A DNA stretch of 64,000 nucleotides from a virus. Below the pieces are notes generated by a model. The model saw nothing but the letters and a program-made list of their open reading frames with translations, was not told where the DNA came from and did no database searches. A program made the translations under genes and the position numbers. The stretch covers positions 1-64,000 of IMG/VR virus record IMGVR_UViG_3300029882_000012; one strand, 5' to 3'. Shown piece by piece: positions 1 to 34,882 of this stretch; position 1 is the stretch's first letter; every line of letters starts with the position of its first letter.

Positions 1-45
1 CTCAAGCCGAAATGACGGCTACTATCTTAATCTAACGTTTTATGT

Positions 46-75
46 CCTTCAGAGTTGACGCTCTGGGGGATTTTT
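46..75 (+). terminator. Rho-independent terminator candidate
   Basis: Stem CCTTCAGAG/CTCTGGGGG (9 bp, two G:U), 6-nt loop, then ATTTTTAATT; would end a + strand unit entering from the left edge. Confidence 0.45.
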
Positions 76-120
76 AATTAAAATCCTTGTTACAAATGTA
101 AACATTTAATTATAAATATT

Positions 121-137
121 ACGGATAATGTATCCGT
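121..137. promoter_or_regulatory. Perfect palindrome ACGGATA-ATG-TATCCGT (half-site shared with elements at 13531 and 23903)
   Basis: 7-bp arms, 3-nt spacer, just downstream of the stop of the 149..328 ORF; could be an operator or a small hairpin. Confidence 0.35.
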
Positions 138-148
138 GTATAAATTAT

Positions 149-328
149 TTAATCTCTTAAAATGTCATTTTTAGCCATCATTTGTCCCTCAACTAATTCC
201 GCTGAAGTTGCTGTTACAATAACCGTCATGTGTGGGTGATGATTATTTGCTAAGTATAACATTAGGGGTTTTGCTGCTTTTTCAAACTCTACCATTTCAA
301 TTGGCAGTTTTTTTACTTTTGTATTCAT
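149..328 (-). CDS. hypothetical protein (59 aa, below track cutoff)
   Basis: ATG at 328, stop at 149-151, read by hand (MNTKVKKLPIEMVEFEKAAKPL...); 3 nt from the next minus-strand ORF. Confidence 0.4.
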   Translation of the reverse strand: MNTKVKKLPIEMVEFEKAAKPLMLYLANNHHPHMTVIVTATSAELVEGQMMAKNDILRD

Positions 329-331
329 AGC

Positions 332-616
332 TTAGTTAACTATTGGTTTGGCTACTAATTTTATTTCGGGTGGTTGCATATCAGAATGTTGCCCCGTTTC
401 AAATAAATATTCGGTCGTTAGTATCAACTCCTTTTTCATGGTTTTCAAGTACTTGATCAATGAATCGATGTCTTGCTCATTATCAATTACATAATCGGTT
501 GTTGTGCCATCCATTTCGGTTGTAAAGCAAACTCCCGCTTCACCTTCAAATACTCCACTATAAATGGTCATGGTATAGTGGATGTTTTCCTCGTCCATTA
601 ACATTAAACTGTTCAT
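332..616 (-). CDS. hypothetical protein
   Basis: Track ORF, co-directional and tightly packed; no motif recognised. Confidence 0.5.
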   Translation of the reverse strand: MNSLMLMDEENIHYTMTIYSGVFEGEAGVCFTTEMDGTTTDYVIDNEQDIDSLIKYLKTMKKELILTTEYLFETGQHSDMQPPEIKLVAKPIVN

Positions 617-638
617 AATTTTTATCGTTTTGTTTGTT

Positions 639-836
639 TTAAATTTTTATTTCGGTTGCATCTTTATAACCATCTGTGTATGCTCGATTATAAAAATTTT
701 CAAATACTTCCCCTATATTTTGCGCCCAATTAATGATTTCACTTGGTTTGGCGGTTAACATATTTACGATTGGTTGCTTATTAAAGTTGGCATAGAATTC
801 ATCGATTGCGTCGGCTTTTCTTTTATCGTTCATCAT
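639..836 (-). CDS. hypothetical protein
   Basis: Track ORF overlapping the upstream gene end by 4 nt; no motif recognised. Confidence 0.5.
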   Translation of the reverse strand: MMNDKRKADAIDEFYANFNKQPIVNMLTAKPSEIINWAQNIGEVFENFYNRAYTDGYKDATEIKI

Positions 837-1573
837 TTTTTATTGGTCATTAAAAATTTATATAATTCATAATTCCACTTGGCATCATCTAAGGCATTGT
901 GTTCATTTTTTTGTTTTGGGTAGCTTTTTTGAGTTTTCATATCAGCCCATTCGGGATCGGGTGAATCCAAATATGGAGTTTGTTTTTCATCAAATATTTG
1001 TTTCAAATCAATACAATACATCGGAAAACCTTTTGGTAAATCAATCATTCTGCCAAACAATGAACAAAATACTACCCAATCATAATCTGCATAATAAGCA
1101 TAAAATTCGGGTTGATTATAAATTAATTCTCTGTTTTTTACATAGCCCCCACTGCCTGATTTCCAATAATATTCAGGTATTTTTGTTTTGTGTTTTTTTA
1201 TATATTCAAACTCATTGGGATAATATATTTCTGCCCAAGCATCATGTCTTGTATAAGTATCTATTAAACCTTGAATTTGTGGATTTATAAAATTAATGAT
1301 ACACTTTGCAATATCTTCATTTGACATCCAAACCTCATACGGTTTCCTATTATTGGGATTAATCGTTGTACCTCTTTCGGGTAATTTTGATAATACATTT
1401 TCCTTCACCCATTCATTAGCATCATCGGAATTAAATTCATTACTTATCGCATAAAAACATCTACCATCTTCTGCTACAATACCTATGCTTATTAAATCAA
1501 TGAAATGCCTTTGTTTGCCATTATCTTGTGTATAGAACCCTTCTATAAATTCGGTATCAATAAAATATTTCAT
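833..1573 (-). CDS. DEDDh-type 3'-5' exonuclease (DnaQ/RNase T-like)
   Basis: Exo I 'FIDTEF', Exo II-like 'YADYDWVVF', Exo III 'HNALDDAKW' (H-x4-D). Confidence 0.7.
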   Translation of the reverse strand: MKYFIDTEFIEGFYTQDNGKQRHFIDLISIGIVAEDGRCFYAISNEFNSDDANEWVKENVLSKLPERGTTINPNNRKPYEVWMSNEDIAKCIINFINPQIQGLIDTYTRHDAWAEIYYPNEFEYIKKHKTKIPEYYWKSGSGGYVKNRELIYNQPEFYAYYADYDWVVFCSLFGRMIDLPKGFPMYCIDLKQIFDEKQTPYLDSPDPEWADMKTQKSYPKQKNEHNALDDAKWNYELYKFLMTNKK

Positions 1574-2202
1574 ATCGTTGGTTTAATTTTCTCCCATTCA
1601 ATTAAATCTTGCTCGATTATCTCATGAAATTCAGGCAATCTTTTAACGGTGATACTACCCCCATGTACGTGTTCGGCTGTCAACCCTGCTTTAACTATCA
1701 TTTTGTAACCGTGTTTTCTGAACTTGTACTCAATGTAAGCATCTGAATACCATATTTTAAGCTGTTCCGGCAATGGATAAACAAGCCGTGCCATTTCTTT
1801 GTTGAAATTTATAAAAATTCCGGCTATTCCCTCGAACACTTCGGTATCGGTTGTGTAGTTTCCTGTATTTGGGATACACCAAACATTTTCTTCTAAATAG
1901 TTACTCCAACCCGGACGCATTATCAGATCGGAGTTCATAATAACTAAGTAGTCGTAGGAATCATTAGCTAAAAAGCATTTAAGCATAACATTCCAACTCG
2001 CAGTCACAAAAATGTTTTTTTCATTTTCAAGCATCCAAACTTTATTCGGATGTTCTGATGAAATTTGTTTGATTGCTTCTTTAACATCGCTTTCAGAATT
2101 GTTATCTATAATCAAAAGGTCGGCTTCGTTAATCACACTTTTAAATGCGCTCAAACAAACGCTACCGTTGTATAAAACAGGAATTCCAATAAGTATTTTC
2201 AT
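1570..2202 (-). CDS. family 2-like (GT-A) glycosyltransferase
   Basis: N-terminal 'KILIGIPVLYNG...LLIIDNNS' GT2 signature; ATG at 2202 in ATGA overlap with the upstream stop (track start 2211 is TTG). Confidence 0.65.
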   Translation of the reverse strand: MKILIGIPVLYNGSVCLSAFKSVINEADLLIIDNNSESDVKEAIKQISSEHPNKVWMLENEKNIFVTASWNVMLKCFLANDSYDYLVIMNSDLIMRPGWSNYLEENVWCIPNTGNYTTDTEVFEGIAGIFINFNKEMARLVYPLPEQLKIWYSDAYIEYKFRKHGYKMIVKAGLTAEHVHGGSITVKRLPEFHEIIEQDLIEWEKIKPTI

Positions 2203-2663
2203 ATTAACCAATTACCGTTACCATCTGAAACTCTGGTGCTATACAAAACATCTTTGCTCCAATTTTCCCTATCTAAAAACATTTCAATTAAAACGTCTGA
2301 TAATTCATGTGGTTTTAGCTGAAGTAATTTTTCACGGGATAATCGGGGACTTTCGTTTAGTGTTTCTTGATTATTAACAACGCTTAATAGCCTTGAAAAA
2401 CTTATCATTCCTCCACCGCAACAATAATCTATATCATGAATGTCCATTAATTTGCAAATGGTGCAGTAAATCCCATCAATTATATGGGCTTGTTCGGCCC
2501 ATTCATTGTAAATCACCTTTTTATTTTCTGTATTACTTAAAAGCTCATTCTCTGGTCTATAAACAAGCAAGCCGTCATTGTTTTCATCAACCGCTAATTC
2601 CTTGTGTGCATCCGCTAATAATTTTTCGGTTTCATCAAATAAATAATTTTCGTATAGTTTCAT
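2199..2663 (-). CDS. hypothetical protein
   Basis: Track ORF with ATG start, coupled to neighbours; no motif recognised. Confidence 0.55.
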   Translation of the reverse strand: MKLYENYLFDETEKLLADAHKELAVDENNDGLLVYRPENELLSNTENKKVIYNEWAEQAHIIDGIYCTICKLMDIHDIDYCCGGGMISFSRLLSVVNNQETLNESPRLSREKLLQLKPHELSDVLIEMFLDRENWSKDVLYSTRVSDGNGNWLI

Positions 2664-2664
2664 T

Positions 2665-3585
2665 TTAATTCCATCTCCTCAAAATAGTTAAACCATTATT
2701 ATTATAGGCACGGAAATCAATTTTCCAATGTGGATTAAACCTTAAAAAGTTTTCAATGGCTCCCCATATTCCACGTCCACACCATACATCGCTTGGTGGC
2801 CCCGGATAAAACCCTTCGCCCGTGTTTTCAAATGAAGTAGTATCATGGAAACCCAAAAAACGCTTCGCTTTATTACCATGTTTTGTTAGTTCACGTTCCA
2901 ACTGCGTATATGTGTGCACAGTGTCGAAAAAAGCAAAATCACACTCCTCAATTTCCACCTCCAAACTACTACCCAAAACGAATTTAAAGTTAGGTGCAAC
3001 GGCTTCAACTTCATCAACTAATGGGTCACGGTAAATGTCATAGCTTGTTAGTGATTTTGGATTGCCTGCAAGCAACGCATAGGTTGATGTGGGTTGTCTT
3101 ACCCCAAACTCGACAATTGTGTCAACCTGTTCGGCTATTGCACGTAAATAGGGTAGTAACTGATTTATATCCGATGGTTTTTCGCACAGTTCATCATACT
3201 TTTTGATAATTGCCTCCATATCGGGTTGTTTTGGCTTATCAGGCACGTTATTTTTCTCTTGTGGAATACTGTTATCCACTTCAACTAAAGTCTTGTCTAA
3301 TGGCTTTATTTCGCCTTGTATGTCGTCTTCGTCTTTTTCAAATTCAATCACTTGTGGTTTTGAAACAATTGTAATGTCTCTGTTTTGCTCGTTATGGTTA
3401 ACAGATTCCACATTTTCATCTGCTTTAATGGATTTAATTAAATTTTTTTCATGCTCAATTTCGGCTTCGGTTTGGTTTACTTTTGCTTTTGGGGGCGGTG
3501 GTGGATTAGTCATTTTTGGAACGCCCGTTTTCTTTGGTTTTTCTGCAACTACTGTATCAGTTGTTTTTTTCGGTCTGCCTGCCAT
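2665..3585 (-). CDS. AT-hook/Lys-Pro-rich N-terminus fused to a class I SAM-methyltransferase-like domain
   Basis: 'MAGRPKK...PPPPPKAK' tail; C-terminal 'IVEFGVRQPTSTYALL' (motif I-like), 'SYDI', 'FFDTVHTY'. Confidence 0.45.
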   Translation of the reverse strand: MAGRPKKTTDTVVAEKPKKTGVPKMTNPPPPPKAKVNQTEAEIEHEKNLIKSIKADENVESVNHNEQNRDITIVSKPQVIEFEKDEDDIQGEIKPLDKTLVEVDNSIPQEKNNVPDKPKQPDMEAIIKKYDELCEKPSDINQLLPYLRAIAEQVDTIVEFGVRQPTSTYALLAGNPKSLTSYDIYRDPLVDEVEAVAPNFKFVLGSSLEVEIEECDFAFFDTVHTYTQLERELTKHGNKAKRFLGFHDTTSFENTGEGFYPGPPSDVWCGRGIWGAIENFLRFNPHWKIDFRAYNNNGLTILRRWN

Positions 3586-3588
3586 GGT

Positions 3589-4050
3589 TTAAGGGATTAA
3601 AATAGTGTGTAAATATAAACTCTTAGCAATGTTGTATTCTTCCAATACACCATCTTTTAATTCCCCTATAAAAATAGCTACACTGTAAAACTTCTTTAAG
3701 TTCTCTAACATAAATTGTCTACTCATTTCAATAGTATTTGATGCGTAATACCAATTTATATCGTTTCCATCCGTCAAACTTTCCATAAATTCAACTATAC
3801 TTAAATCCCATCCTTTTTGCTCTACAATTTTACGTGGCATCGTGCATGAATGTACCTTTAGGTTTGTTTTGCTTTCATGGAGTAGTTCGTTTTGGCTTGC
3901 CCATTTAAAGAACTTTTCTTCAATTTCTTTTAGCTGTTGTCCTTTCAATGTGAAATGAATGCTAAAATCTGTAACACTTTTATATGTGTCACGCTCACCC
4001 ATTGGTTCACCTATATTTTTAAATGCTTTTATTGTTTCTTGGTCTTCCAT
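3589..4050 (-). CDS. hypothetical protein
   Basis: Track ORF with ATG start; no motif recognised. Confidence 0.55.
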   Translation of the reverse strand: MEDQETIKAFKNIGEPMGERDTYKSVTDFSIHFTLKGQQLKEIEEKFFKWASQNELLHESKTNLKVHSCTMPRKIVEQKGWDLSIVEFMESLTDGNDINWYYASNTIEMSRQFMLENLKKFYSVAIFIGELKDGVLEEYNIAKSLYLHTILIP

Positions 4051-4055
4051 GACAA

Positions 4056-4412
4056 TTAAGATTTATGTGGTTGATAAGTTCCTAAAACACCTTCAGCTTC
4101 CCTTGCTAATGTGCGTTCTTCTAACCAATGCTGTGCCTCTTGAAGATGAGTTATCACCAATGATGTTTCACGGCTCGGCACAAGTGATGATTTATATTTT
4201 AAATCCTCAATCATTACCGATAATAAATGCTCGTGCAATGTGCCTTCACGTTTTTCAACCGCTTCGTCTTTTAGCTTTGAACCTCGCACGAATTTGATTG
4301 AATGCGTTTCGCCTGTTTCTACAATTCCTTGTCCGTCTACTACTTCATAAATTGGTAACTCATAATGAGTTCCTTGTTCGACGGTTTTAAATGCTCTTTT
4401 GTTTGTTGCCAT
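4056..4412 (-). CDS. hypothetical phage protein
   Basis: C-terminal 'ITHLQEAQHWLEERTLAREAEGVLGT' resembles a motif I have seen in small phage proteins but cannot name. Confidence 0.5.
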   Translation of the reverse strand: MATNKRAFKTVEQGTHYELPIYEVVDGQGIVETGETHSIKFVRGSKLKDEAVEKREGTLHEHLLSVMIEDLKYKSSLVPSRETSLVITHLQEAQHWLEERTLAREAEGVLGTYQPHKS

Positions 4413-4435
4413 GGCTATGTTTTGGTAATGTGATT

Positions 4436-4720
4436 TTATATAACTGCGTATAAGTCGGATTCTCTCATTATTAAATATTGGTCTCCCTCAATATCAATTT
4501 CTTGTCCTGAAAACTTCCCGTAAAGAACCCTATCACCAACCTGAACTATTAGTGGTAAAATTGTATTGGTTGTTTCAGAACGTTTGCCGTCCCCTATGGC
4601 TACTACCGTCCCAATGACTGATGATTCTTGGGCTGTTTCTGGAATGTAAATCCCGCTTTTTGTTTTAGTTACAATTTCGTCAGGTTGAACAATTATTCGG
4701 TCATGAAGTGGTTTTATCAT
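4436..4720 (-). CDS. groES: co-chaperonin GroES
   Basis: 94 aa; 'IKPLHDRIIVQP...KTKSGIYIPETAQE...GTVVAIGDG...VGDRVLYGKFSGQEI' is GroES along its whole length. Confidence 0.9.
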   Translation of the reverse strand: MIKPLHDRIIVQPDEIVTKTKSGIYIPETAQESSVIGTVVAIGDGKRSETTNTILPLIVQVGDRVLYGKFSGQEIDIEGDQYLIMRESDLYAVI

Positions 4721-4727
4721 TTTGTTT

Positions 4728-5228
4728 TTATTTATAGTGTAGGTTAATAAAGTTATCTATGTTTTCGCTTAAAAGTAGATGGGCGTTGGCTCTTACTTTT
4801 TCATCAGTCCAATCCCACCATTTTATTTGTAAAAGCTTTTCAATTTGTTCGGGATTGAATCGGAATCCTATTGAGCGATGATTGCCGACTATTATTTCAT
4901 AAGGCTTAACATCTTTGGTTACAATTCCACGCATCCCGATTATTGCACCGTCACCTATTGTTACACCCGACATAATTACGCATTGCTCTCCACACCAAAA
5001 GTCATTTCCAATTACCACATCACCTTTAATTTTAAGGTTTAATGGTAAATGCGAGCATCCAGCCATGTTAGCTTGAAATGGATAGGTTGAAACGTTCTTA
5101 TAGTTGTGACTGAAACCTGAATCAATTAATGTATTTTCTCCAAAACTTCCATACTTTCCGATGGTGACATTATTATGATTGCCCCTTAAAATAGGATTAC
5201 CATATGTATATGCTCCAATACTTAGCAT
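4728..5228 (-). CDS. hexapeptide-repeat (LbH) acetyltransferase, xenobiotic/CatB-like
   Basis: Repeats 'VVIGNDFWCGEQCVIMSGVTIGDGAIIGMRGIVTKDVKPYEIIVGN'. Confidence 0.8.
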   Translation of the reverse strand: MLSIGAYTYGNPILRGNHNNVTIGKYGSFGENTLIDSGFSHNYKNVSTYPFQANMAGCSHLPLNLKIKGDVVIGNDFWCGEQCVIMSGVTIGDGAIIGMRGIVTKDVKPYEIIVGNHRSIGFRFNPEQIEKLLQIKWWDWTDEKVRANAHLLLSENIDNFINLHYK

Positions 5229-5231
5229 ACC

Positions 5232-5420
5232 CTATTTTTTAATTTTCGTAAGGTTATCAAAAGCCACTCCAACATTTTTCATTGCATTTTTTTTCTCAAC
5301 CTCTGTGCCGTTGAAGTGCTTGTTTAACTGGCTTACTATTTCTTTGTGGTTGTGGTTTACGGCCATTTCTTCATCCGTTAAAGGCTTTTTTTCGATAGCT
5401 TGTTCTTTTTGCTTTGTCAT
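5232..5420 (-). CDS. hypothetical protein
   Basis: Track ORF, tightly packed; no motif recognised. Confidence 0.45.
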   Translation of the reverse strand: MTKQKEQAIEKKPLTDEEMAVNHNHKEIVSQLNKHFNGTEVEKKNAMKNVGVAFDNLTKIKK

Positions 5421-5422
5421 GA

Positions 5423-5974
5423 TTATTTATATTGATTTCTTATTTGTTCGCATTTTTCAGGTGAATGCCATTTGTCGATTGCGTGATAACCAAGTGAACC
5501 TAATCCCCAAATGGTCTCAACACTAAACTTTTTTGCCGTTTCAATATCGGGCAATTTACCGTTTAATTGTTGTAATCCCTGTGTGAAAAAAATGTCCTCA
5601 TTAACGCTGCCATCGTAAGATATGTGATTAATCACTCTCAACATGGCTTTTGTATCTCTTAAACTTAATCCCCCGTTCATTGCCGGGAATGGTATATGGT
5701 AAAGCGGTGCGCCAATAAAGTCATAATCTAAAAATGCCTCAATCCCTTGCTTTAACAGCATTGCATCTGACTGAAATATCAATACCTTTTCTGCGGGCAA
5801 GTTTCGCCAAAGACGCTTTGAACATAATAAACGGTTGTATTCTGCTGCCGTTGTTGTCGCTTCGTTCTTGATCCAATAAACTTCACATCCTTTGGGCAAA
5901 AACTCTTCAAATTGGGCTATTATTGGCTCAATCCCGGGTCTATTATCAATTATTACCGCTGCAAAAACTGTCAT
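5423..5974 (-). CDS. DUF5672-like protein (glycosyltransferase-associated family)
   Basis: 'VLIFQSDAMLL...DFIGAP...GGLSLR' pattern recalled from DUF5672; not verified by search. Confidence 0.4.
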   Translation of the reverse strand: MTVFAAVIIDNRPGIEPIIAQFEEFLPKGCEVYWIKNEATTTAAEYNRLLCSKRLWRNLPAEKVLIFQSDAMLLKQGIEAFLDYDFIGAPLYHIPFPAMNGGLSLRDTKAMLRVINHISYDGSVNEDIFFTQGLQQLNGKLPDIETAKKFSVETIWGLGSLGYHAIDKWHSPEKCEQIRNQYK

Positions 5975-6300
5975 TACTTTTTACATCTACATTTTATCGC
6001 ATCAAACATTATCAACTCAATTTCTCCGCTACCACCACATACAGGGCATTTAGGTTTATTCACCCATGTTAAGTTTTCAATCTTATTGTTGATAGGTCTC
6101 TTGCTATGAGATAAATATTCAAACTGCTCTTGTGATAGTTCGCTTACTTCTTCAATATAATCGCCTACTGTTGGTGGATTGTTCTCCCAGTACAAATCAC
6201 AAATAGGTTTTATGTTCTTTTCGGGGATAAACCTACCAGTTATTTTGCTTACATAAACATTTCCTGATTTTTCAATATGTGGTGGTAAACGAAGTTCCAT
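5974..6300 (-). CDS. small protein with DnaJ-type CxxCxGxG zinc-finger motif
   Basis: C-terminal 'CPVCGGSGEIE...CRC'. Confidence 0.5.
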   Translation of the reverse strand: MELRLPPHIEKSGNVYVSKITGRFIPEKNIKPICDLYWENNPPTVGDYIEEVSELSQEQFEYLSHSKRPINNKIENLTWVNKPKCPVCGGSGEIELIMFDAIKCRCKK

Positions 6301-6304
6301 TGGG

Positions 6305-7051
6305 TTACATTATTACTTCTTTTTGAAAGTTGGGGTGCTGTTTGAGTAATAAAGGTAATTCATTTTTATCAAAAGATACGGCATTCCACAAATCATGGGA
6401 AACTAAGTGCAACCCCTTGTCTATTGTCATTCCCGGTTCCCATCTTAGATAAACATCGTTTAACCAATTAGGGCGAATTTCAACTTTATGTCCGTGAATT
6501 TCCAATTTATATTTCATTATATCAAGACGTTGGGCTGTACTGAAATGGTATATCCTACATTTGGCTGACCCCTGACCATCAATCCTATGAAGATTAATAA
6601 ATCTTATTGGTTCAAACCCATCGTAGCAACACCAATTGAATGATTTAAAAAAATTGATATATCCACTTACGCCAATATATCTTTTATCACTTACCATTGC
6701 TGTTTCAATAAATGATGCTATATCGGCTGGTTCGAGTATTTCATCTGCATCAAAAGTAAGAATTCCATCAAAGTTTTCCTCTTGTGCAATTTTATAAATT
6801 AATCCTCTGTGCTGATTTTCGGCATAGGCTTGTATATTATGCCATTGTACCTTATTGGATGCTGACAGTGCAATGTCCCTTAATTCATCTTCACTATCTG
6901 GACAAACTAATTGTGTATTATAACCGTAAGATGGTTTCGATGTGTAAAGCATTACTATCTTTTCAACAAATGGTTCGACGGCCTTTATAGCTTCTGAAAG
7001 GTACTCAATTCCGTAATGTAGGGGACAATATGCAATGATTCTGTTACTCAT
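6305..7051 (-). CDS. family 2-like (GT-A) glycosyltransferase
   Basis: 'IIAYCPLHYGIEYLSEAIKAV...', acidic 'FDADEI' (DxD-like). Confidence 0.6.
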   Translation of the reverse strand: MSNRIIAYCPLHYGIEYLSEAIKAVEPFVEKIVMLYTSKPSYGYNTQLVCPDSEDELRDIALSASNKVQWHNIQAYAENQHRGLIYKIAQEENFDGILTFDADEILEPADIASFIETAMVSDKRYIGVSGYINFFKSFNWCCYDGFEPIRFINLHRIDGQGSAKCRIYHFSTAQRLDIMKYKLEIHGHKVEIRPNWLNDVYLRWEPGMTIDKGLHLVSHDLWNAVSFDKNELPLLLKQHPNFQKEVIM

Positions 7052-7060
7052 AAATTCATT

Positions 7061-7261
7061 TTAAAATATTTTCAATTGCGCCAACCTCAAAGCCATTGCC
7101 GTCTGTGATACATCAAATGTTTTCGCTAATTGCTTTAACGCTTCATCGGATGTTAAATCAAACGTTATTTTTTTAACCTCTTGTTTTACTAAATGTGCAG
7201 GCATCAACAAACACATGGCAAAATAATTGGCTTCGGCTTCTGATATATTATCTTTTCTCAT
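7061..7261 (-). CDS. ImmA/IrrE-like fragment (C-terminal part only, possible remnant)
   Basis: 'EAEANYFAMCLLMPAHLV' matches the conserved E-x-x-AN-x-FA-x-x-LLMP block, but no HExxH is upstream; 66 aa; 14-nt overlap with the GT gene. Confidence 0.45.
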   Translation of the reverse strand: MRKDNISEAEANYFAMCLLMPAHLVKQEVKKITFDLTSDEALKQLAKTFDVSQTAMALRLAQLKIF

Positions 7262-8132
7262 AAAGTTCCTTAATTGCCAATGCCATGTGTTTAAATGTGT
7301 GATTGTTTAATGCTAATTCATGCCCACATTTTGCAATATCTTCTCTCGCTCTTTCGGCATCTAATATTTTATCAATCCAATATTTTAAGTTGTCAATATC
7401 CGTCCAATAAATAACGGTTGATGGGTCAAAGTCTTCGGTAACGCCTTTATATCCATGTGTTAAAACACAAGTACCGCTAAGCAGCATCCGAAACATTCTA
7501 TCACTTGTATAACGTTCGTAATCGAAGTGACTTAAATTAATGCCTATTTTAGCCCGTCTGTACATATCGGCTTCATCCTTTTGATTGTTTAATGAGCCGT
7601 CTGGCTGTCCAGAACCGAAAGCTTTAAACCTATCACCATAAACCCTTTTAAGTTCACGTACCATATCAACACGCATTCTACTCAATGGAAAATGTCCGAA
7701 TGTATTTCCGCAAAAAACTATATCAACATCTTTAGTTACATTACTATCGGGATGATAAATCATTTCGTCCGCACCAATTTGTAAGTATTCGGCATTATAC
7801 CCTAATGATTTTAATGTTTTAACATCATTCATGTTACTGAAACAAGTTAAATCAACGTATTTAGCATATTCAAAATAACACGGGGGAATAACCGCACGTA
7901 CATCGCCACTCCAGTTTATTACAAAACAACCTATATTTTTTAAATGTTGCAGAGCCTGTGATGATATGCCACTGTCTTGTGGCTGCAAAAAGGCAATGTC
8001 ACCCGATTTTAGCCCCATGATGCCATTATTTACATCTTTCATAGGAATATCTACGAATTCATCACAAACACTTCTCACAGCGTCTGTAAATCCATTTTTT
8101 CCTCCCATAACTCCAGCGTAGATGATTTTCAT
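7248..8132 (-). CDS. CgeB/GT1-like glycosyltransferase
   Basis: C-terminal half resembles the Glyco_trans_1_2/CgeB pattern ('IGINLSH...YTSDRMFRMLLSGTCVLT...'). Confidence 0.5.
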   Translation of the reverse strand: MKIIYAGVMGGKNGFTDAVRSVCDEFVDIPMKDVNNGIMGLKSGDIAFLQPQDSGISSQALQHLKNIGCFVINWSGDVRAVIPPCYFEYAKYVDLTCFSNMNDVKTLKSLGYNAEYLQIGADEMIYHPDSNVTKDVDIVFCGNTFGHFPLSRMRVDMVRELKRVYGDRFKAFGSGQPDGSLNNQKDEADMYRRAKIGINLSHFDYERYTSDRMFRMLLSGTCVLTHGYKGVTEDFDPSTVIYWTDIDNLKYWIDKILDAERAREDIAKCGHELALNNHTFKHMALAIKELYEKR

Positions 8133-8134
8133 GG

Positions 8135-8494
8135 TTAACCTATTAATGAGATTGGTCTATTATCGTTTAATGGTCTGATTTCTTTTCTATCCCAACCGTA
8201 AGGCTTTATTCCGCTATCGCCAAAATCCGGAATTCCTTTTACGCTGCATGATAATCCCAATATTTTAATTAATTCCCATCTTCTATCATCCGAATCGCTA
8301 TACTCTTTTTGTGAGTTTAAATAATTCTCATATACTGTCGGTCTTACGTGATAAATATAACCGTTTTCTTCCCGTCCAATATTATCAGAATATTCCCGTC
8401 TATATGCCAATTCAAACCTCATTGCATTTTCTTCCAATCGTGGCAATATTTCGATTAGTCTACGAAGTTCAGCCAATTGTTGTTCTCTTTGCAT
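8135..8494 (-). CDS. hypothetical protein
   Basis: Track ORF, tightly packed; no motif recognised. Confidence 0.55.
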   Translation of the reverse strand: MQREQQLAELRRLIEILPRLEENAMRFELAYRREYSDNIGREENGYIYHVRPTVYENYLNSQKEYSDSDDRRWELIKILGLSCSVKGIPDFGDSGIKPYGWDRKEIRPLNDNRPISLIG

Positions 8495-8832
8495 TATTTT
8501 ATTTTTAAAGGTTTAATTCTTTTATCAGCGTTCTCAATCCACCCGATTGCCAGCTTATTGATTTTTATATTCCATGTATCATGGTCAATTTCACCGCCTA
8601 TGTACGGAAAAAACTCTTTCTTTCCTATGCCGATTGCCTTTTTAAATTCGTCGTTAACATCAATGTCGGCATACACCACACCATTTTCCTTTCGCAATAT
8701 AGCCATTCCAATAGGTTCATCACTTTCAAAAGTTGCGGTTATTTTGATAGGCGTTATGAATGTTGCTGTCTTAATCAAGACATCATTGTGGGTAAATCCC
8801 TCGATGAACACAACGGAGTTTAAGATTTTCAT
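8494..8832 (-). CDS. hypothetical protein
   Basis: Track start 8883 is TTG; first ATG is at 8832 (MKILNSVV...). Confidence 0.5.
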   Translation of the reverse strand: MKILNSVVFIEGFTHNDVLIKTATFITPIKITATFESDEPIGMAILRKENGVVYADIDVNDEFKKAIGIGKKEFFPYIGGEIDHDTWNIKINKLAIGWIENADKRIKPLKIK

Positions 8833-8948
8833 TAGTGTATTATTTTGAAGATATGAACGATAATAATTGCGGTTACAATGCAAGCCCCAATCACATATAC
8901 ATAGGGCATTATGATTTCTTGTATTTTTCGGATAGTGGTTTCATATTA

Positions 8949-9542
8949 TCAATATGTGTGGTTTAACCGTAAATATGGTGGATTAATTCTTTTGGTTCCG
9001 TCATAGCTTTTTTCTCCTTTATGTAAATGATGAGATTTAATGGTTAAGCATGGATTTGACATTTCATATCCCATTTTTCTCAACTCATAATTCAGTCTAT
9101 TGTCGCACCCAGGAATTTGATGATAATCACAATAGCTTGGAATTTTTATTATTCCCTTAAAAATCCAAGCATCTTGACTATCGATTTGATTAAGCAATAT
9201 TCCATTTTCATATCTTGTAATGGAAAAGCATTGATTGATCCCCGGTAATAAATTTAATGCCTCAAAATAAATATCACTATTTGATACAACATTAATATCA
9301 TCATAATTTGTTACCGCATTAACGGCATTAAAAAATGTTCTAAACGTTGGCCTAATTGTTACAGGTAAAACATTTACGTTTGTCGGCAAACCTTCCAACA
9401 CCCATTCTGCCAACTCACCACCTTCAGCCAACACCCAAACAATATCAAATACTTTGCAATTTCTTAAAAGACATTCCTTTAATTCGGATTGCCTTTTTTT
9501 ATTTTGTTCGTTGTAAAGGCTTATGAATAAGTTTGTGGTCAT
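8949..9542 (-). CDS. hypothetical protein, possible GT-A-like glycosyltransferase
   Basis: 'SLYNEQNKKRQSELKECLLRN...RPTF...SNSDIYF...SQDAWIF...GCDNRL...HHLH' pattern; weak recall only. Confidence 0.35.
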   Translation of the reverse strand: MTTNLFISLYNEQNKKRQSELKECLLRNCKVFDIVWVLAEGGELAEWVLEGLPTNVNVLPVTIRPTFRTFFNAVNAVTNYDDINVVSNSDIYFEALNLLPGINQCFSITRYENGILLNQIDSQDAWIFKGIIKIPSYCDYHQIPGCDNRLNYELRKMGYEMSNPCLTIKSHHLHKGEKSYDGTKRINPPYLRLNHTY

Positions 9543-9545
9543 TTT

Positions 9546-9680
9546 TTAATAAATCATTATTACTTCTTCGTTGCCGTCTTTTTCGGGTTCAACAAATTCA
9601 ATTTCATCCATGTTTAAATCAACGACTGTTTGGTCGTCATCAAATTCTAATAGCTTATCACGTAATTGTCCGACTGTCAT
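9546..9680 (-). CDS. small protein (44 aa), 'MTVGQL' family paralog 1
   Basis: Hand-translated MTVGQLRDKLLEFDDDQTVVDLNMDEIEFVEPEKDGNEEVIMIY; below track cutoff. Confidence 0.4.
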   Translation of the reverse strand: MTVGQLRDKLLEFDDDQTVVDLNMDEIEFVEPEKDGNEEVIMIY

Positions 9681-9691
9681 ATGTTTTTAAT

Positions 9692-9868
9692 TTATTGGGT
9701 TCTACCGTCATTTTCCATTGAAATAATCTCTACAAACCTGCCGACCGCAATTTCATCGATATTAACATATTTTTGCGTTGATCCATCTAAAGATTTCCCG
9801 TAAAATTTAACTAATAGGTTTTTATCTTCAACCTCGTTTAAGTCATCGATTAATTGCTGTACTGTCAT
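9692..9868 (-). CDS. small protein (58 aa), 'MTVQQL' family paralog 2
   Basis: Hand-translated MTVQQLIDDLNEVEDKNLLVKFYGKSLDGSTQKYVNIDEIAVGRFVEIISMENDGRTQ. Confidence 0.45.
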   Translation of the reverse strand: MTVQQLIDDLNEVEDKNLLVKFYGKSLDGSTQKYVNIDEIAVGRFVEIISMENDGRTQ

Positions 9869-9870
9869 GA

Positions 9871-10260
9871 TTATTCTATTTTAATGGTTATTTTTTTAGT
9901 TAAATCAACGTTCACATCAATAGCCGCATTTAATCCGATTAATTCATTTTTTGATTTCTCGGCTAATAGGGCTGTTTTATAGTCTTTTGTGTTGACGGTC
10001 TTTTTATAAATAAATTCAAACCTGCTTTTAGATTCCGCTATTAACTTCTTTCTATCGGGTTCAATTTCCTTTTGAATTTCGGCTGTGGCATCGTGCATAT
10101 AGTTCTCAATCTGCCTTTCAGTAACCCCCCATTTTAGGTTAGGGCTATCCGCAATAGTGCGAAATATTTCCCTTCTCCTCAATCCGCTTAAAATCATATC
10201 CATAACTATGCTCACCCTATTTTCATATTCGAGGTCTGTTATTCTATTATCTCCTGGCAT
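9871..10260 (-). CDS. hypothetical protein (HTH-like N-terminus)
   Basis: Track ORF with ATG start; sits downstream of a good promoter match. Confidence 0.55.
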   Translation of the reverse strand: MPGDNRITDLEYENRVSIVMDMILSGLRRREIFRTIADSPNLKWGVTERQIENYMHDATAEIQKEIEPDRKKLIAESKSRFEFIYKKTVNTKDYKTALLAEKSKNELIGLNAAIDVNVDLTKKITIKIE

Positions 10261-10291
10261 TATTTATTCCTTTTTTTATTTTCGTGTATAT

Positions 10292-10322
10292 CAAACCTAC
10301 GTATAAATAATTATTTTACAAA
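10292..10322 (-). promoter_or_regulatory. Bacteroidota-type promoter TTTG-N19-TAGGTTTG
   Basis: Minus strand reads TTTG(10322-10319)-19 nt-TAGGTTTG(10299-10292), about 30 nt upstream of the ATG at 10260. Confidence 0.45.
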
Positions 10323-10436
10323 AAGTTTGTGTGTTTCGCCGCACCATTTACATTTAACACTTGTTGGTTTATATCTACTATTATAATACCATTTATGTCC
10401 AAACCACTTACATATTAATTTTTTTATTTTTTTCAT
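10311..10436 (-). CDS. small zinc-ribbon protein (DUF1660-like, 41 aa)
   Basis: MKKIKKLICKWFGHKWYYNSRYKPTSVKCKWCGETHKLFVK; C-x-x-x-GH-x-W...C-x-x-C pattern; ATGA overlap upstream. Confidence 0.4.
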   Translation of the reverse strand: MKKIKKLICKWFGHKWYYNSRYKPTSVKCKWCGETHKLFVK

Positions 10437-10582
10437 TTCTTTTTAGCATTTAATATTGCTGACTTTCTATTTAATGGCAGTATTTCGAGGTAGTACTCAA
10501 TTTCCTTTTGGCTATATGTTGGCTTTTTTCGCTTATTAGCTATCTTTTCAAGTCTCTCAAACCGCGTTGGGTTTCTCTCCAT
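10433..10582 (-). CDS. small basic protein (49 aa)
   Basis: MERNPTRFERLEKIANKRKKPTYSQKEIEYYLEILPLNRKSAILNAKKK; ATGA-coupled to the next ORF. Confidence 0.35.
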   Translation of the reverse strand: MERNPTRFERLEKIANKRKKPTYSQKEIEYYLEILPLNRKSAILNAKKK

Positions 10583-10584
10583 CC

Positions 10585-10731
10585 CTATAATAATAAATCA
10601 AGGCTTTTCATATATTTAAAAAGCTTAAGCGTATGGTTTCGAGAATAATTCTTCTTGCTCATAGTCATGTCTTTGAATACCTTAAATCTTTTTCGACTAT
10701 CAAAATTCGGATTAATTACGTCTTTATGCAT
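10585..10731 (-). CDS. small protein (48 aa)
   Basis: MHKDVINPNFDSRKRFKVFKDMTMSKKNYSRNHTLKLFKYMKSLDLLL; fills the gap between track ORFs. Confidence 0.3.
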   Translation of the reverse strand: MHKDVINPNFDSRKRFKVFKDMTMSKKNYSRNHTLKLFKYMKSLDLLL

Positions 10732-10752
10732 GATATTTAATTATTAACTGTT

Positions 10753-11001
10753 TTAAAGTACCTCACAAGTATTAGTATGTGCTATCAAAAAGTCTTGTCG
10801 CTTTGCCTCTCTCATATCTTCATGTTCTAAAATGAATTCCAATGCCTCGGTTTTGGTCGGTGAATTAACCACGTAAAGCTGTGATTTTATATTTTTATCA
10901 CTCTCTCGGTAAAGTACAATACAAACTGCAAATTTTTTCATTTTACTTTTGCTATTATGCGTTAAAATCATTTTCCTCGATAACCCAATAGCTACTTTCA
11001 T
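10753..11001 (-). CDS. hypothetical protein
   Basis: Track ORF; start uncertain (47-nt overlap with the upstream ORF; internal ATGs exist). Confidence 0.45.
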   Translation of the reverse strand: MKVAIGLSRKMILTHNSKSKMKKFAVCIVLYRESDKNIKSQLYVVNSPTKTEALEFILEHEDMREAKRQDFLIAHTNTCEVL

Positions 11002-11167
11002 TTACTAAAATGGGTTGGTTTAATACCCTATCTATCAACACGAAATAATTGTCTCCGACATAATCTATTTCACCGTTATTGTGGATGTTTTCATTGCAAC
11101 CAATTCCATGTAAATAACAATCGTTGGTTCTCATTCCTATGGATGGTGTGAAATTAAAATCGCTCAT
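10955..11167 (-). CDS. hypothetical protein
   Basis: Track ORF, 4-nt overlap upstream. Confidence 0.45.
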   Translation of the reverse strand: MSDFNFTPSIGMRTNDCYLHGIGCNENIHNNGEIDYVGDNYFVLIDRVLNQPILVNESSYWVIEENDFNA

Positions 11168-11445
11168 TTTTTAATACTTAGTCGCTTTTCTGCCATGTCT
11201 GCCAATTCAAGTACCTTTTTATTATCAACCTGAAACTTAAATCCAATGGCCTCCATACCATCTTCGCATAAGGGTATGGCGATACTATTAATCCCATTGT
11301 TATAATAATCGGGCTGTGATTGTATTTGCGCTTCTGTATAATGTCCCGCTGTAAATGGATAATTAGTATATCCAGCGTTGTTTGCTCTCCAAAAACACGG
11401 TTGTTTCTTGGTTGAATGTTTTAGTGAAAATATTATGTATTCCAT
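11164..11445 (-). CDS. hypothetical protein
   Basis: Track ORF; no motif recognised. Confidence 0.5.
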   Translation of the reverse strand: MEYIIFSLKHSTKKQPCFWRANNAGYTNYPFTAGHYTEAQIQSQPDYYNNGINSIAIPLCEDGMEAIGFKFQVDNKKVLELADMAEKRLSIKK

Positions 11446-11455
11446 GATTATTTAT

Positions 11456-12010
11456 TTATCGATTCCACGTTGTCGTTTTAACTTCGGCATTCGCTTTTAT
11501 CTTTTCAATTTCCTCGCTGATATTTGCCAATTCAGATGGATAAAAAGAGAACAATATAAACGTCTTTTTAAACGCTTTTTCTTCTTTTTGTTCGTGCGGT
11601 AAAATCTTGGAATCGGTGTCCGGCAACCCCCAATCATTCAAAAGGTTAATATCCCAATCACCATGAGTTAGGGCATCCCAATCGTTTTCACCGTACTCGA
11701 TGTTATCTTTTATGGTATAGGCTTTCAATTTTTCAATTGGTGTGTCGGCTGGTAGCACCTTGCAATAACATTTTTTATACTTCAATTCTTGCTGTGCCGT
11801 TAGCCTCATATTACCCGCAATTGCCACGTAATCTTCGCCCAATGGGAATACAATCAACTCCCTTAATTCAAGCATTTCGGGGTCGTCCTGTATAGATTTG
11901 AGTAGCTTTTTATAGCGTTTATCTTTTATCGATCTCGGATTTTTTGGCAATCCATCGATTTGCCCAATGTTGTGTTTGATTTTGCCAATGGCTATTTGTT
12001 CTGTTTTCAT
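11456..12010 (-). CDS. ParB-like nuclease (ParB/Srx N-terminal) domain protein
   Basis: 'GLPKNPRSIKDKRYKKLLKSIQ...ELIVFP...YVAIAGNMRLTA' (ParB box motifs). Confidence 0.7.
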   Translation of the reverse strand: MKTEQIAIGKIKHNIGQIDGLPKNPRSIKDKRYKKLLKSIQDDPEMLELRELIVFPLGEDYVAIAGNMRLTAQQELKYKKCYCKVLPADTPIEKLKAYTIKDNIEYGENDWDALTHGDWDINLLNDWGLPDTDSKILPHEQKEEKAFKKTFILFSFYPSELANISEEIEKIKANAEVKTTTWNR

Positions 12011-13474: not shown

Positions 13475-13530
13475 GATTTTTGTTTTTAAGTATTTAAAAT
13501 AAATTTCGTTTTGTTTGCTGATGTAAACAT

Positions 13531-13585
13531 ACGGATAAATACGTAATATGCAAATTTATTTTCACTTTTTTTTCAAAAATATTTT
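13531..13585 (-). promoter_or_regulatory. conserved promoter/operator element, copy A
   Basis: ACGGATAAATACGT + 6 nt + CAAATTTATTTTCACTTTTTTTTCAAAAATATTTTT; minus strand contains TAAATTTG (TAnnTTTG); near-identical copy at 23903-23957. Confidence 0.5.
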
Positions 13586-13948
13586 TCATTCAAGCAATCT
13601 TTCAATTTCAATAATCTTTCTGTTGTACTTTTTATCCATATCCATAAGGTCTTTTACGGTATCTTTTGAATAAACAACGGTGGAATGGTCTCTATTAAAA
13701 TATATCCCTATTTCTTTATAAGAGTAGATATTTTTAAGCCACATAAAGTACATGGCTATTTGTCGTGGTATCACAATCTCCCGTTTCCTGCTTTTCGACT
13801 TTATCAACGCACTTGAAATATTGAAATATGTTGTTACTACTTCCATAACATGCTCCATATAGTTAGCTGCCAAGTACTCATCCCTTATTTTCTTGAGATA
13901 ATTTTTCTGTACATGAAAGTCAATCCCCGCAAATATTTCTGCACTCAT
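13586..13948 (-). CDS. DnaA domain IV-like DNA-binding protein (no AAA+ domain)
   Basis: 'KSRKREIVIPRQIAMYFMWLKNIYSYKEIGIYFNRDHSTVVYSKDTVKDLM' matches the DnaA C-terminal HTH; ATG at 13948 in ATGA overlap. Confidence 0.7.
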   Translation of the reverse strand: MSAEIFAGIDFHVQKNYLKKIRDEYLAANYMEHVMEVVTTYFNISSALIKSKSRKREIVIPRQIAMYFMWLKNIYSYKEIGIYFNRDHSTVVYSKDTVKDLMDMDKKYNRKIIEIERLLE

Positions 13949-14493
13949 CATACTAATCCTAAATTGGCAGAACGCCAAAGCACAATATCAACCACGCTTA
14001 CTTTATCACCAGTTTGTTTTGAAAGTTGTAAGCACATTTCATTGCAGTTCGGGAATTTATAATGGTTGGCTATCCTCACTAAATGTCGGTCTGGCTTAAC
14101 CACATCATGCCCTAAGTTTTTAGCTAAATGATAGCAAGTTATTTCACCTATGAATGGTATTGTTTTTAAATACTCAATTTTATTTATTGATCGCAAATAT
14201 CCATCAAACATTGAATTATATTCACAAAGTATTTTTTTTATGGCTGCAACCTTTCCTTTGTGACCGAATACCTCTGAAATGTTACGTTTATCATTAATTG
14301 CTTGCCATATCCGGGTATGTATTAATCTTGCGATTTGTGCTTTCATTCCACTATTTAGTATAACCCAAATAGCCTCATTCCTGAAAATTATTGGGTCTGT
14401 TACTGGTTGTAATTCGGTTTGCCAGTCAATTTCATCTTGATAACCCAAATAAATAATTTCTTGCTTTAATGCTAAATAATATTCTGCTGTCAT
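13948..14493 (-). CDS. HhH-GPD superfamily (endonuclease III/DNA glycosylase-like) protein
   Basis: Helix-hairpin-helix 'IPFIGEITCYHLAKNLGHDVVKPDRHLVRIA'. Confidence 0.55.
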   Translation of the reverse strand: MTAEYYLALKQEIIYLGYQDEIDWQTELQPVTDPIIFRNEAIWVILNSGMKAQIARLIHTRIWQAINDKRNISEVFGHKGKVAAIKKILCEYNSMFDGYLRSINKIEYLKTIPFIGEITCYHLAKNLGHDVVKPDRHLVRIANHYKFPNCNEMCLQLSKQTGDKVSVVDIVLWRSANLGLV

Positions 14494-18688: not shown

Positions 18689-19442
18689 TTACAATAGTTT
18701 TGTTTGTGATATATGATGATTATATCTTTTAACTGATTTTGGATGCATCTTTTCATCGTTTTCAAAACATATAAAGTTTCTATTCTCATCATGACTTGCG
18801 ATGGCTGTCGTACCGCTTCCCGAACAGTTATCCAATATTAAATCGCCTTTATTTGAATAGGTTTTGATTAAATATCTAAAAAGTGGAACTGGTTTTTGGG
18901 TCGGATGAATGGTATTATTAGCCGAATCAAAATGTAAAACACTTTCTGGATAGTTTGTATATTCCTGTTTGTATTGCTGTCCTTTGGTTGCACCATAATT
19001 TTCTGTTGTTACAAGTTTTGAATCTTTAACCAACTTCTCGTATGGTCGTAACCCTTGAGGATTGTAAACGTTTTTGTCATAAAAAATTAAAATCGATTCG
19101 TGTATTCTCAAATGGCTGATGTTTAGCATTCAAATAATTAGTGCTATCCGTTTTTTTCCAAATCCATTCGTATTTAAACATATCTAAATTAGACATTATT
19201 AGCATTGATGTAAACGGTTGAGCAGCCGTGAGACATATTGTCCCCATAGGAGCCAAAACCCTTTTATATTGTCCCCATAGGAATTTTAAATCAATTACTG
19301 AATCCCATTTGTTGGCTGTCGTTCCGTATGGTAAATCGCACAGGATTAGGTTTATAGAACTATCAGCCACTAATGGCAACAAATCCAAACAGTCCCCGTA
19401 TGTTATTTTATTTATAAATTTATCGTTTGCTTTTTGAATCAT
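18689..19442 (-). pseudogene. N6/N4-type DNA methyltransferase split by a 1-nt frameshift
   Basis: 19077..19442 has 'LILCDLPYG' (DPPY); 18689..19129 has 'HPTQKPVPL' and 'DNCSGSGTT'; frames join near 19108-19116 (CAGCCATTTGAGAAT). Confidence 0.75.
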
Positions 19443-34847: not shown

Positions 34848-34882
34848 GGGCTTCGATAAATTATCGGGGCTTTTATTTTTTA
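34848..34882 (+). terminator. strand-specific (+) intrinsic terminator candidate in a minus-strand operon
   Basis: GGGCTTCGA/TCGGGGCTT pairs well only as + RNA (four G:U become C:A on the minus strand), followed by TTTTATTTTTT. Confidence 0.35.

Follow-up and report, generated by a model that had tools for sequence, protein, structure and literature searches.

A recurrent glycan-assembly cassette of uncultured tailed phages and its possible action on phage head proteins

What does a set of seven sugar-, methyl- and acetyl-transferring enzymes do for a tailed phage, and on which acceptor do these enzymes act? The question is raised by positions 1570-9542 of a 64,000-nucleotide stretch of viral DNA (positions 1 to 64,000 of IMGVR_UViG_3300029882_000012, hereafter the window), which is part of a 94-kb genome with a circular map. 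Sixteen open reading frames (ORFs) occupy this interval, all on the minus strand, and seven of them are genes of a glycan cassette. A first-pass annotation of the same DNA had named these seven genes as an 8-kb glycan-modification island; the ORFs of all seven are present on the minus strand where it had placed them, and for the gene at 1570-2202 the public gene call (210 aa, ATG start at 2202) agrees with the ORF. The analyses below show that seven of the sixteen genes are one conserved unit, which we read as a phage-borne glycan-assembly cassette. We favour the cytoplasmic glycosylation of phage head proteins as its function, a reading that we regard as evenly poised between right and wrong.

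The unity of the cassette is seen most clearly in other viruses. A scan of IMG/VR with the CgeB-like protein of the window returned two contigs, L001 and L002, whose cassette proteins are 40-63% identical to those of the window. L001 has six of the seven genes in one uninterrupted run within 4.1 kb, ordered as in the window; L002 has all seven, again uninterrupted and in that order, with the acetyltransferase gene lying between the DUF5672 and methyltransferase genes. A profile scan of IMG/VR with the family of the 248-aa glycosyltransferase (GT) yielded at least 172 relatives. Eighty of these loci were taken for mapping and, with two found earlier, make up a survey set of 82 other cassette loci, on which the seven families were mapped gene by gene using hidden Markov models built from our own alignments together with all-against-all clustering. 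The 248-aa GT is present in 82 of 82 loci by construction, the DUF5672 protein in 80, the CgeB-like GT in 71 (nearly always immediately upstream of the 248-aa GT), the 197-aa GT-A protein in 62, the methyltransferase cluster in 45, the acetyltransferase in 16 and the 210-aa GT2 in 14, and many of the absent genes fall at contig ends. The order CgeB-like GT, 248-aa GT, DUF5672 is nearly invariant across the 82 loci, with the 197-aa GT-A gene directly before or after these three, and 4-nt gene overlaps are frequent in the loci checked. Among the genes of the island, only the seven cassette genes have widespread homologues in the survey set. Because other viral contigs repeat the seven together and in this order, their grouping in the window is not a product of chance. 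The core consists of the 197-aa GT-A protein, the CgeB-like GT, the 248-aa GT and DUF5672, and the methyltransferase, the acetyltransferase and further GTs are accessories. The genes are thus grouped, as the first pass had held, and its "8-kb island" can be redefined as a lineage-stretched copy of a conserved compact cassette, with nine genes interspersed.

Glycosylation machinery of this size had been called uncommon in tailed phages. This is contradicted by the at least 172 IMG/VR contigs that carry a relative of the 248-aa protein, and it is borne out for GenBank phage records, from which the cassette is missing. When 50,697 GenBank phage records (a set that presumably includes many mycobacteriophages) were searched by tblastn, the CgeB-like and 248-aa proteins had no match, DUF5672 matched one megaphage, and the 197-aa GT-A protein matched only cyanophage S-SKS1 and a megaphage. 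Likewise, a megablast search of GenBank phages with window positions 1-12000 returned no match. Among cellular genomes (one for each of 185,579 species of bacteria and archaea), only one contig was matched, in a metagenome-assembled genome of the Saprospiraceae, and that contig is itself a phage of group B, one of the layouts described below. Judged by these homology searches, the cassette is essentially virus-restricted. Bacteroidota are a plausible and even probable host group, which fits the G+C content of the window (33-41%). No description of the cassette was found in the literature searched on DUF5672, phage CgeB and phage capsid glycosylation.

Of the four core enzymes, the universal one is the 248-aa GT2-like protein (6305-7051, minus strand). 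Its best Pfam match has an E-value of only 0.045. In its family of 84 homologues, however, the motif D101-x-D103-E104 is invariant (D101-A-D103-E104 form), and the family profile has a sole match in the PDB, the Listeria flagellin O-GlcNAc transferase GmaR (E 7.4e-5). AlphaFold2 models were built for the 248-aa and 197-aa proteins and compared with the PDB by Foldseek, the top 50 matches being considered. For the 248-aa model (pLDDT 95.8) these matches are headed by SunS (3e-7) and ThuS, followed by SpsA, cellulose synthase BcsA and COLGALT1. All have the GT-A/nucleotidyl-transferase fold; a few are nucleotidyl transferases and nearly all are GT-A glycosyltransferases. The viral matches of this protein are all uncharacterised glycosyltransferases. 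The 197-aa protein (8949-9542, minus strand) has no Pfam match, and its 65 homologues are all metagenomic, with a Pfam domain in none of the 65. Its model (pLDDT 92.1, pTM 0.90) matches GT-A glycosyltransferases only (E ~1e-4, TM at most 0.63), among them CHSY3, WrtF, KfiA, SunS, GTA/GTB and ppGalNAcT. Both models display the GT-A fold, a Rossmann-like alpha/beta/alpha arrangement with an acidic motif after beta-4. In the 197-aa family, N88-S-D90 at the DxD position, a DSQD motif and a CDNR motif are invariant; since N88-S-D90 replaces the DxD, metal binding is less certain there.

The other two core proteins are recognised by family. The CgeB-like GT (7248-8132, minus strand) matches Pfam PF13524 (Glyco_trans_1_2, a GT-B C-terminal-type domain) in its C-terminal half (E 5.5e-15, 56 bits against a cutoff of 25). 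Its orthologues in L001 and L002 are 45-55% identical, and a search of the PDB with its family profile gave nothing significant. The DUF5672 protein (5423-5974, minus strand) matches Pfam PF18922 firmly (E 3.5e-29, 102 bits against a cutoff of 24.4). This family numbers 2,712 clusters in a 50% identity library, and proteins from elsewhere combine it with a Glyco_trans_1_2 domain, the kind found in its CgeB-like neighbour here, or with GT90, Gly_transf_sug, GT9 or GT-D domains. Single-sequence and profile searches revealed no similarity to PDB chains, and profile-profile comparisons with both GT-A families, using shallow and deep alignments, gave probabilities below 10%. DUF5672 occurs in nearly every locus and is fused to five GT families, and it therefore almost certainly belongs to glycan chemistry, a role that we infer from these associations.

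The accessory enzymes are more variable. The last cassette gene (1570-2202, minus strand) encodes the 210-aa GT2-like protein, for which several weak matches concur: Pfam Glycos_transf_2 (PF00535; E 4.5e-4, 20.6 bits, below the cutoff of 23.3), a PHROG galactosyl transferase (5e-4), NCBIfam EpsE (7.5e-4) and, as best PDB profile matches, ArnC and other GT2 enzymes (E 0.018-0.3). DNNS and NSD motifs are invariant in the family alignment, and the orthologue in L013 carries a weak precomputed Glycos_transf_2 annotation. The 306-aa protein encoded at 2665-3585 (minus strand) is methyltransferase-like of class I (S-adenosylmethionine-dependent, SAM). It has no Pfam, PHROG, NCBIfam or PDB match, and the search of the PDB with its family profile was also empty. 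Its C-terminal ~180 aa fall in a family of 244 proteins, most of them stand-alone proteins of ~180 aa, and some of these relatives, 43-52% identical, are annotated as PF04989 (CmcI/rhamnosyl O-methyltransferase), PF13578 (Methyltransf_24) or PF05711 (TylF); the L002 orthologue has a Methyltransf_25 match (0.0015). The predicted CmcI/Methyltransf_24-type catalytic domain covers residues ~126-306 (nt 2668-3210). In L013, a different Methyltransf_24 enzyme fills the same slot. The labels of the methyltransferase and the 210-aa GT2 draw on indirect or sub-threshold evidence, and both are used here as putative.

The N-terminal extension of the methyltransferase (nt 3211-3585) is lineage-specific. 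It begins with the AT-hook-like MAGRPKK, kept in 14 of 17 close homologues, followed by a basic tract. A small protein encoded at 34880-35224 (minus strand), otherwise unrelated, has an N-terminal AGRPKK and a Lys/Pro-rich basic tract like residues 1-45 of the methyltransferase, and this type of N-terminus might tether a protein to DNA or act as a targeting signal.

The hexapeptide-repeat acetyltransferase (4728-5228, minus strand), a left-handed beta-helix protein, matches Pfam Hexapep (3.7e-7, 30 bits against a cutoff of 27) and phrog_16087 (7e-41). Its NCBIfam matches to Vat/CatB (1.7e-36) reach 125.7 and 111 bits against cutoffs of 300-350. By these scores it is predicted to be a superfamily member of the xenobiotic-acetyltransferase class, not a Vat/CatB equivalog, and to stand outside the antibiotic-resistance families. 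In L002 and L013 its gene lies within the compact cassette. The identities proposed by the first pass can be retained in this graded form, with six of the proteins supported as transferases of the kinds then named and DUF5672 as a firm family match.

Further accessories occur by lineage, including GT25 and GT4 enzymes, a GT8-looking protein (L012) and, on a 101-kb NCBI metagenome contig, a second CgeB-like gene with extra GT2 genes. In the phage of the window itself, a 191-aa GT2-like gene (L014 10398-10973, minus strand) lies ~0.2-0.8 kb beyond window position 1. Situated between TerL and the cassette but oriented the other way, it is conserved in the closest relatives; its L001 homologue (13475-14029) matches Pfam GT2 at 6e-7. 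This gene is probably an eighth cassette member of this lineage, lying outside the window.

Where in the cell would such enzymes work, and with what donors? No membrane segment was found in the cassette proteins, the highest 19-residue Kyte-Doolittle mean being 1.46 against a criterion of at least 1.6, and the pI values of the cassette enzymes, 5.1-7.0, are acidic to neutral throughout. They are accordingly predicted to be soluble and cytoplasmic. Precomputed Pfam annotation, covering the window and ~10 kb on each side (~84 of 94 kb), contains no gene for nucleotide-sugar synthesis, a flippase, a polymerase or a base hydroxymethylase, which extends to the flanks an absence first noted in the window. 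These observations support the central proposal of the first pass, namely that soluble GTs together with a methyltransferase and an acetyltransferase would use host donors to build a decorated oligosaccharide on an existing acceptor.

The position of the cassette in other genomes bears on what that acceptor might be. The neighbouring ORFs of all loci were clustered and the commonest clusters annotated, which brought out several recurrent layouts. In group B (e.g., L090), the order is TerL, portal, MuF-like protein, head maturation protease, HK97-type capsid (Pfam 6.5e-26), cassette and gp6-like connector, so that the cassette is inserted exactly between the capsid and head-tail connector genes of an otherwise canonical head operon. 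In group A (e.g., L066), a ClpP-type prohead protease with a coiled-coil tail (7.5e-25) is followed by a virion structural protein of 338 aa (phrog_1623), which is the probable capsid; after one or two small genes come the cassette, a GT25 gene and the portal. In L013, the cassette is directly upstream of the ClpP and probable capsid genes. In group C, the core is flanked by genes for a GT10 fucosyltransferase, a GDP-mannose 4,6-dehydratase (4.9e-137) and an epimerase/reductase. Group D takes in the window, L001, L002 and further loci; here the cassette closes the replication-side block and precedes TerL, from which it is ~5.8 kb away in the phage of the window. The capsid proteins, proteases and portals of groups A and B fall in separate sequence clusters. 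When the loci were collapsed at 90% identity of the 248-aa protein, 39 lineages remained. An identified head or packaging gene lies within four genes of the core in 24 of the 39, and a capsid, probable capsid or prohead protease gene within three genes in 19; both counts are lower bounds, because only the commonest neighbour clusters were annotated. As a separate observation, two or three paralogous ~330-aa genes always precede GT10, upstream of the core, in group C loci (L024-L034, L038, L043 and L051), and these paralogues have no Pfam or PHROG match.

Since the cassette adjoins the major capsid gene in two unrelated head-module layouts, head proteins are favoured as the acceptor, and the Ser/Thr-rich virion fibres, phage DNA and host envelope, which the first pass had listed as equal candidates, are no longer on a par with them. 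From the folds and families of the enzymes, the unity of the cassette and its position, we infer an acceptor, an order of steps and a benefit. The soluble enzymes would take nucleotide sugars from the host and assemble an oligosaccharide stepwise on a head protein, likeliest the major capsid protein or one bound to it. The 248-aa GT is the best candidate for the first, protein-directed transfer, because no locus lacks it and because peptides or proteins are what its closest solved relatives glycosylate. The 197-aa GT-A protein, the CgeB-like GT, DUF5672 and the 210-aa GT2 would extend the chain, and O-methyl and O-acetyl caps would be added by the methyltransferase and acetyltransferase; in group C phages, host sugars would be supplemented with GDP-deoxyhexose. 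The outcome would be a capsid clad in sugar, like those of chloroviruses and some mycobacteriophages, with shielding, stability, adhesion or evasion of capsid sensing as possible benefits. A broader proposal, which we hold with a little less than even confidence, is that the virus-restricted four-gene core with its interchangeable capping and sugar-supply accessories is a widespread module of uncultured tailed phages for coating HK97-fold capsids. Its glycans would be methylated, acetylated and sometimes deoxyhexose-containing, and its hosts probably Bacteroidota and other environmental bacteria.

Several points weigh against glycosylation of head proteins. The link to the head is one of gene position alone, and since loci within a group are related by descent, the independent capsid-adjacent placements are few, perhaps two to four. 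In the phage of the window, the cassette is not adjacent to the capsid gene but ~30 kb away on the circular map. That gene (62967-64000, minus strand, continuing in L009 7328-9982) appears to encode an 884-aa protease-scaffold-capsid fusion with a prohead-protease-like N-terminus, a long Lys/Glu-rich, scaffold-like coiled-coil and a C-terminal capsid-like domain; the assignment is drawn from its sequence and its position upstream of the sheath gene, and the protein has no match among PDB sequences. DNA-glycosylating clusters also occur near structural and terminase genes (Pyle et al. preprint), and the methyltransferase of this lineage has the AT-hook-like basic N-terminus that could tether it to DNA. 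In addition, structural similarity to GT-A enzymes does not predict the acceptor, and DUF5672 is placed by family match and not by fold. A Ser/Thr-rich C-terminal tail of the mycobacteriophage kind was looked for on the cassette-adjacent capsid proteins; only a short conserved "TGSLNANPS" end was seen, in group B, and this counts neither for nor against the reading.

The alternative that survives best is modification of the host envelope or of lipid-linked glycans, which we consider unlikely. The GTs would act at the inner membrane face on undecaprenyl-linked or lipid A-core intermediates, and the changed surface polysaccharide would block superinfection or stop progeny from sticking to lysed cells. 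Some accessory families are typical of lipopolysaccharide or exopolysaccharide synthesis (GT25, the GT9-DUF5672 fusions and the weak EpsE and ArnC matches), but the cassette has no flippase, polymerase, ligase, initiating phosphoglycosyl transferase or membrane protein, and its absence from cellular genomes is unexpected for enzymes borrowed from envelope pathways. Also in its favour, the distant homologue of the 197-aa protein in S-SKS1 sits among genes for a nucleotide-sugar epimerase, a phosphoheptose isomerase and a fucosyltransferase, and comparable cyanophage gene sets have been interpreted as serving cell-wall modification (PMC12801897). The phage of the window also encodes, in its tail-fibre cluster, a 382-aa protein with a GDSL/SGNH lipase/esterase domain (48239-49387, minus strand), which suggests a receptor-modifying deacetylase and an acetylated polysaccharide receptor. 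A late position in the head operon, by contrast, fits poorly with action on the cell surface before lysis.

Hypermodification of phage DNA, with GTs acting on a hydroxylated base and methyl and acetyl groups added to the sugar as protection from restriction and CRISPR, is in our judgement decidedly improbable. Viromes abound in clusters of GT-A and GT-B enzymes that put mono- to trisaccharides on DNA, some of them next to terminase or structural genes, and in the phage of the window the cassette lies between replication genes and TerL. Known phage DNA glycosylation requires a hydroxylated base, supplied by a thymidylate-synthase homologue or by a C5 (cytosine) methylase with a TET/JBP (5mYOX) oxygenase (PMC13326640), and none of these three enzymes is represented in the Pfam annotation of the window and its ~20 kb of flanks. 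Of the 94-kb genome, ~11-13 kb are outside the sequence so covered, and two exact-pattern scans of metagenome contigs did not recover this part. A search of 1.44 Mb of cassette loci with E. coli ThyA was likewise negative, the search having been made with an unverified query sequence and no positive control. Neither T4 alpha- and beta-GT nor JGT or TarP is among the top 50 PDB matches of the 197-aa and 248-aa models, the acidic to neutral pI of every cassette enzyme also speaks against DNA as a substrate, and four to seven transferases are more than any known DNA glycan would need. The conserved AT-hook-like N-terminus would suit a DNA substrate, but it is found in this lineage only, methyltransferases elsewhere being ~180 aa long. 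Least probable of all, and by a rough estimate very improbable, is that the GTs glycosylate a host protein or a small molecule in the manner of bacterial toxin GTs, for example to inactivate a host factor or a defence signal in takeover or counter-defence. Soluble cytoplasmic enzymes, the interleaving of a candidate anti-defence gene and the weak match of the group B accessory GT4 to a Pfam GT4 family linked to conflict systems would agree with this. Against it, a multi-step pathway with capping goes beyond what the inactivation of a target requires, the interleaved genes are not conserved with the cassette, and a late head-operon position is unsuited to early takeover. A small share of probability is assigned to none of these four readings.

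The nine interspersed genes, all on the minus strand, were also considered as members of the system. Five ORFs between cassette genes have no assigned function (2199-2663, 3589-4050, 5232-5420, 8135-8494 and 8494-8883), and one has a weak zinc-ribbon match in a library search (5974-6300). The 118-aa protein encoded at 4056-4412 matches the Acb2/Tad1 hairpin domain (phrog_2428 1.6e-20; Pfam 5e-5, slightly under the cutoff) and may act as a sponge for the cyclic nucleotides of defence signalling (anti-CBASS/anti-Thoeris). A GroES/Cpn10 co-chaperonin is encoded at 4436-4720 (1e-29) and is possibly a capsid-folding helper like T4 gp31; in two relatives, Cpn10-like genes lie a few genes downstream of the cassette (L012 13135-13650 and L002 16478-17275). 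At 7061-7261, overlapping the beginning of the CgeB-like gene, lies what is probably the remnant of a gene, a 66-aa ORF that matches just the C-terminal end of the M78/IrrE peptidase domain (1.9e-6). Eight of the nine have no homologue in the 82 other loci, and GroES has one. The interspersed genes are not conserved with the cassette and are therefore lineage-specific insertions; membership of GroES, the Acb2-like gene and the others in the system was rejected on this ground. A scan of positions 1-11000 for promoters and terminators found 45 sites against 48 expected, which is the chance level.

Other features of this phage are given for completeness. The replication region encodes a PAPS-reductase-like protein (24405-25331, minus strand; phrog_424 1.7e-16, no Pfam match) and two DNA methyltransferases (17397-18344 and 19439-20140, both minus strand; phrog_56). 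The DNA methylases of the window are of the N6/N4 type, and the phage probably methylates its DNA separately from the glycan cassette. A 51-aa homologue of ribosome modulation factor (RMF) is encoded at 40751-40906 (minus strand) beside a lysozyme gene (40903-41361), and a second, weaker RMF-like gene lies just beyond the window start (L014 11000-11251); RMF genes are unusual in a phage. Several HNH homing endonucleases are present, for instance at 55587-56009 (plus strand) within the tail module, and an IS1595-family DDE transposase gene lies in the same genome beyond the window (L009 695-1630).

If glycosylation of head proteins is borne out, capsid glycosylation would be common in environmental phages and not a curiosity of mycobacteriophages and giant viruses. 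DUF5672, with its thousands of members, would gain a testable function, as would the phage CgeB-like proteins that are now annotated as sporulation genes. Decorated capsids would bear on the survival and adhesion of phages in soils, peat and water, and on their recognition by capsid-sensing bacterial defences or by grazers. The search strategy of virome proteomics would need rethinking, because modified capsid peptides would be missed. Compact, soluble enzymes for protein glycosylation might also be of use in glycoengineering.

How does the cassette compare with known systems? The clusters that hypermodify DNA (T4 alpha/beta-GT, the clusters of C5-methylase, 5mYOX and GT genes of Pyle et al., and RB69 and DLP3 with arabinosyl-5hoC) resemble it in their clustered GT-A and GT-B enzymes, their use of host sugar nucleotides and, sometimes, their location near terminase or structural genes; they differ in depending on a hydroxylated-base gene, none of which was found in the sequence covered here. 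Temperate-phage seroconversion (GtrABC, Oac) is marked by a membrane-embedded GtrA flippase, GtrB and a serotype-specific GtrC, or by an acyltransferase that is an integral membrane protein, whereas all the cassette proteins lack membrane segments. The S-SKS1 island of the Synechococcus phage holds the only cultured-phage homologue of the 197-aa GT-A protein, at 30% identity, and its record was not returned by tblastn with the other three core proteins.

Further parallels are found among individual enzymes. By structure and by profile, the closest solved relatives of the 248-aa GT are SunS, ThuS and GmaR, GT2-type GT-A enzymes of cytoplasmic peptide or protein glycosylation. Identity is 12-14%, and the sequence match covers the nucleotide-binding half only; in place of their C-terminal TPR or substrate-binding domains, the 248-aa GT has its own tail of ~70 residues. 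Pfam PF13524 was built around Bacillus subtilis CgeB, a protein of spore-crust maturation. CgeB works on the glycan layer that covers a protein shell (PMC13436329), a parallel that extends to the domain family alone, the acceptor and reaction of CgeB being poorly defined.

By mode of action, the nearest systems are the capsid glycosylation of chloroviruses and the virion glycosylation of mycobacteriophages. The chloroviruses encode soluble GTs, a methyltransferase associated with a GT, and GMD/GMER to supply deoxyhexose for capsid glycans (PMC5408694). As in PBCV-1 (Vp54; A064R, A111/114R), the cassette GTs have no signal peptides or membrane segments and are associated with a methyltransferase, and the capsid protein, the acceptor there, is the proposed acceptor here; GMD/GMER has its counterpart, a GDP-mannose dehydratase and epimerase/reductase, only in some relatives (group C). 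Unlike this tailed phage, PBCV-1 is a giant virus of eukaryotes. No sequence homology was detected between its enzymes and those of the cassette, and the 50 best PDB matches listed for the 197-aa model include no chlorovirus glycosyltransferase. PBCV-1 carries its GT and methyltransferase as domains of a single protein, with its genes dispersed, whereas the cassette has separate genes in a tight operon; the Vp54 glycans are experimentally defined, whereas the cassette is known from genes alone.

To our knowledge, virion glycosylation of tailed phages has been shown experimentally only in a few mycobacteriophages, where virion O-glycosylation was reportedly described by Freeman et al. in 2023 (Cell Host Microbe). 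Like the phage of the window, mycobacteriophages are tailed phages with their own GTs, although they have fewer of them and infect Actinobacteria, the hosts here being probably Bacteroidota. As summarised in two reports, glycans are carried there by subunits of the capsid and of the tail tube (PMC12619734, PMC11256854). The CgeB-like and 248-aa proteins had no tblastn match in the GenBank phage records, which presumably include many mycobacteriophages, and these enzymes therefore appear to be unrelated to the mycobacteriophage GTs. By homology, the cassette thus appears to belong to neither the chlorovirus nor the mycobacteriophage glycosylation machinery: an enzyme set unrelated to the mycobacteriophage one recurs in more than 100 uncultured phage genomes, built into the head-assembly operon.

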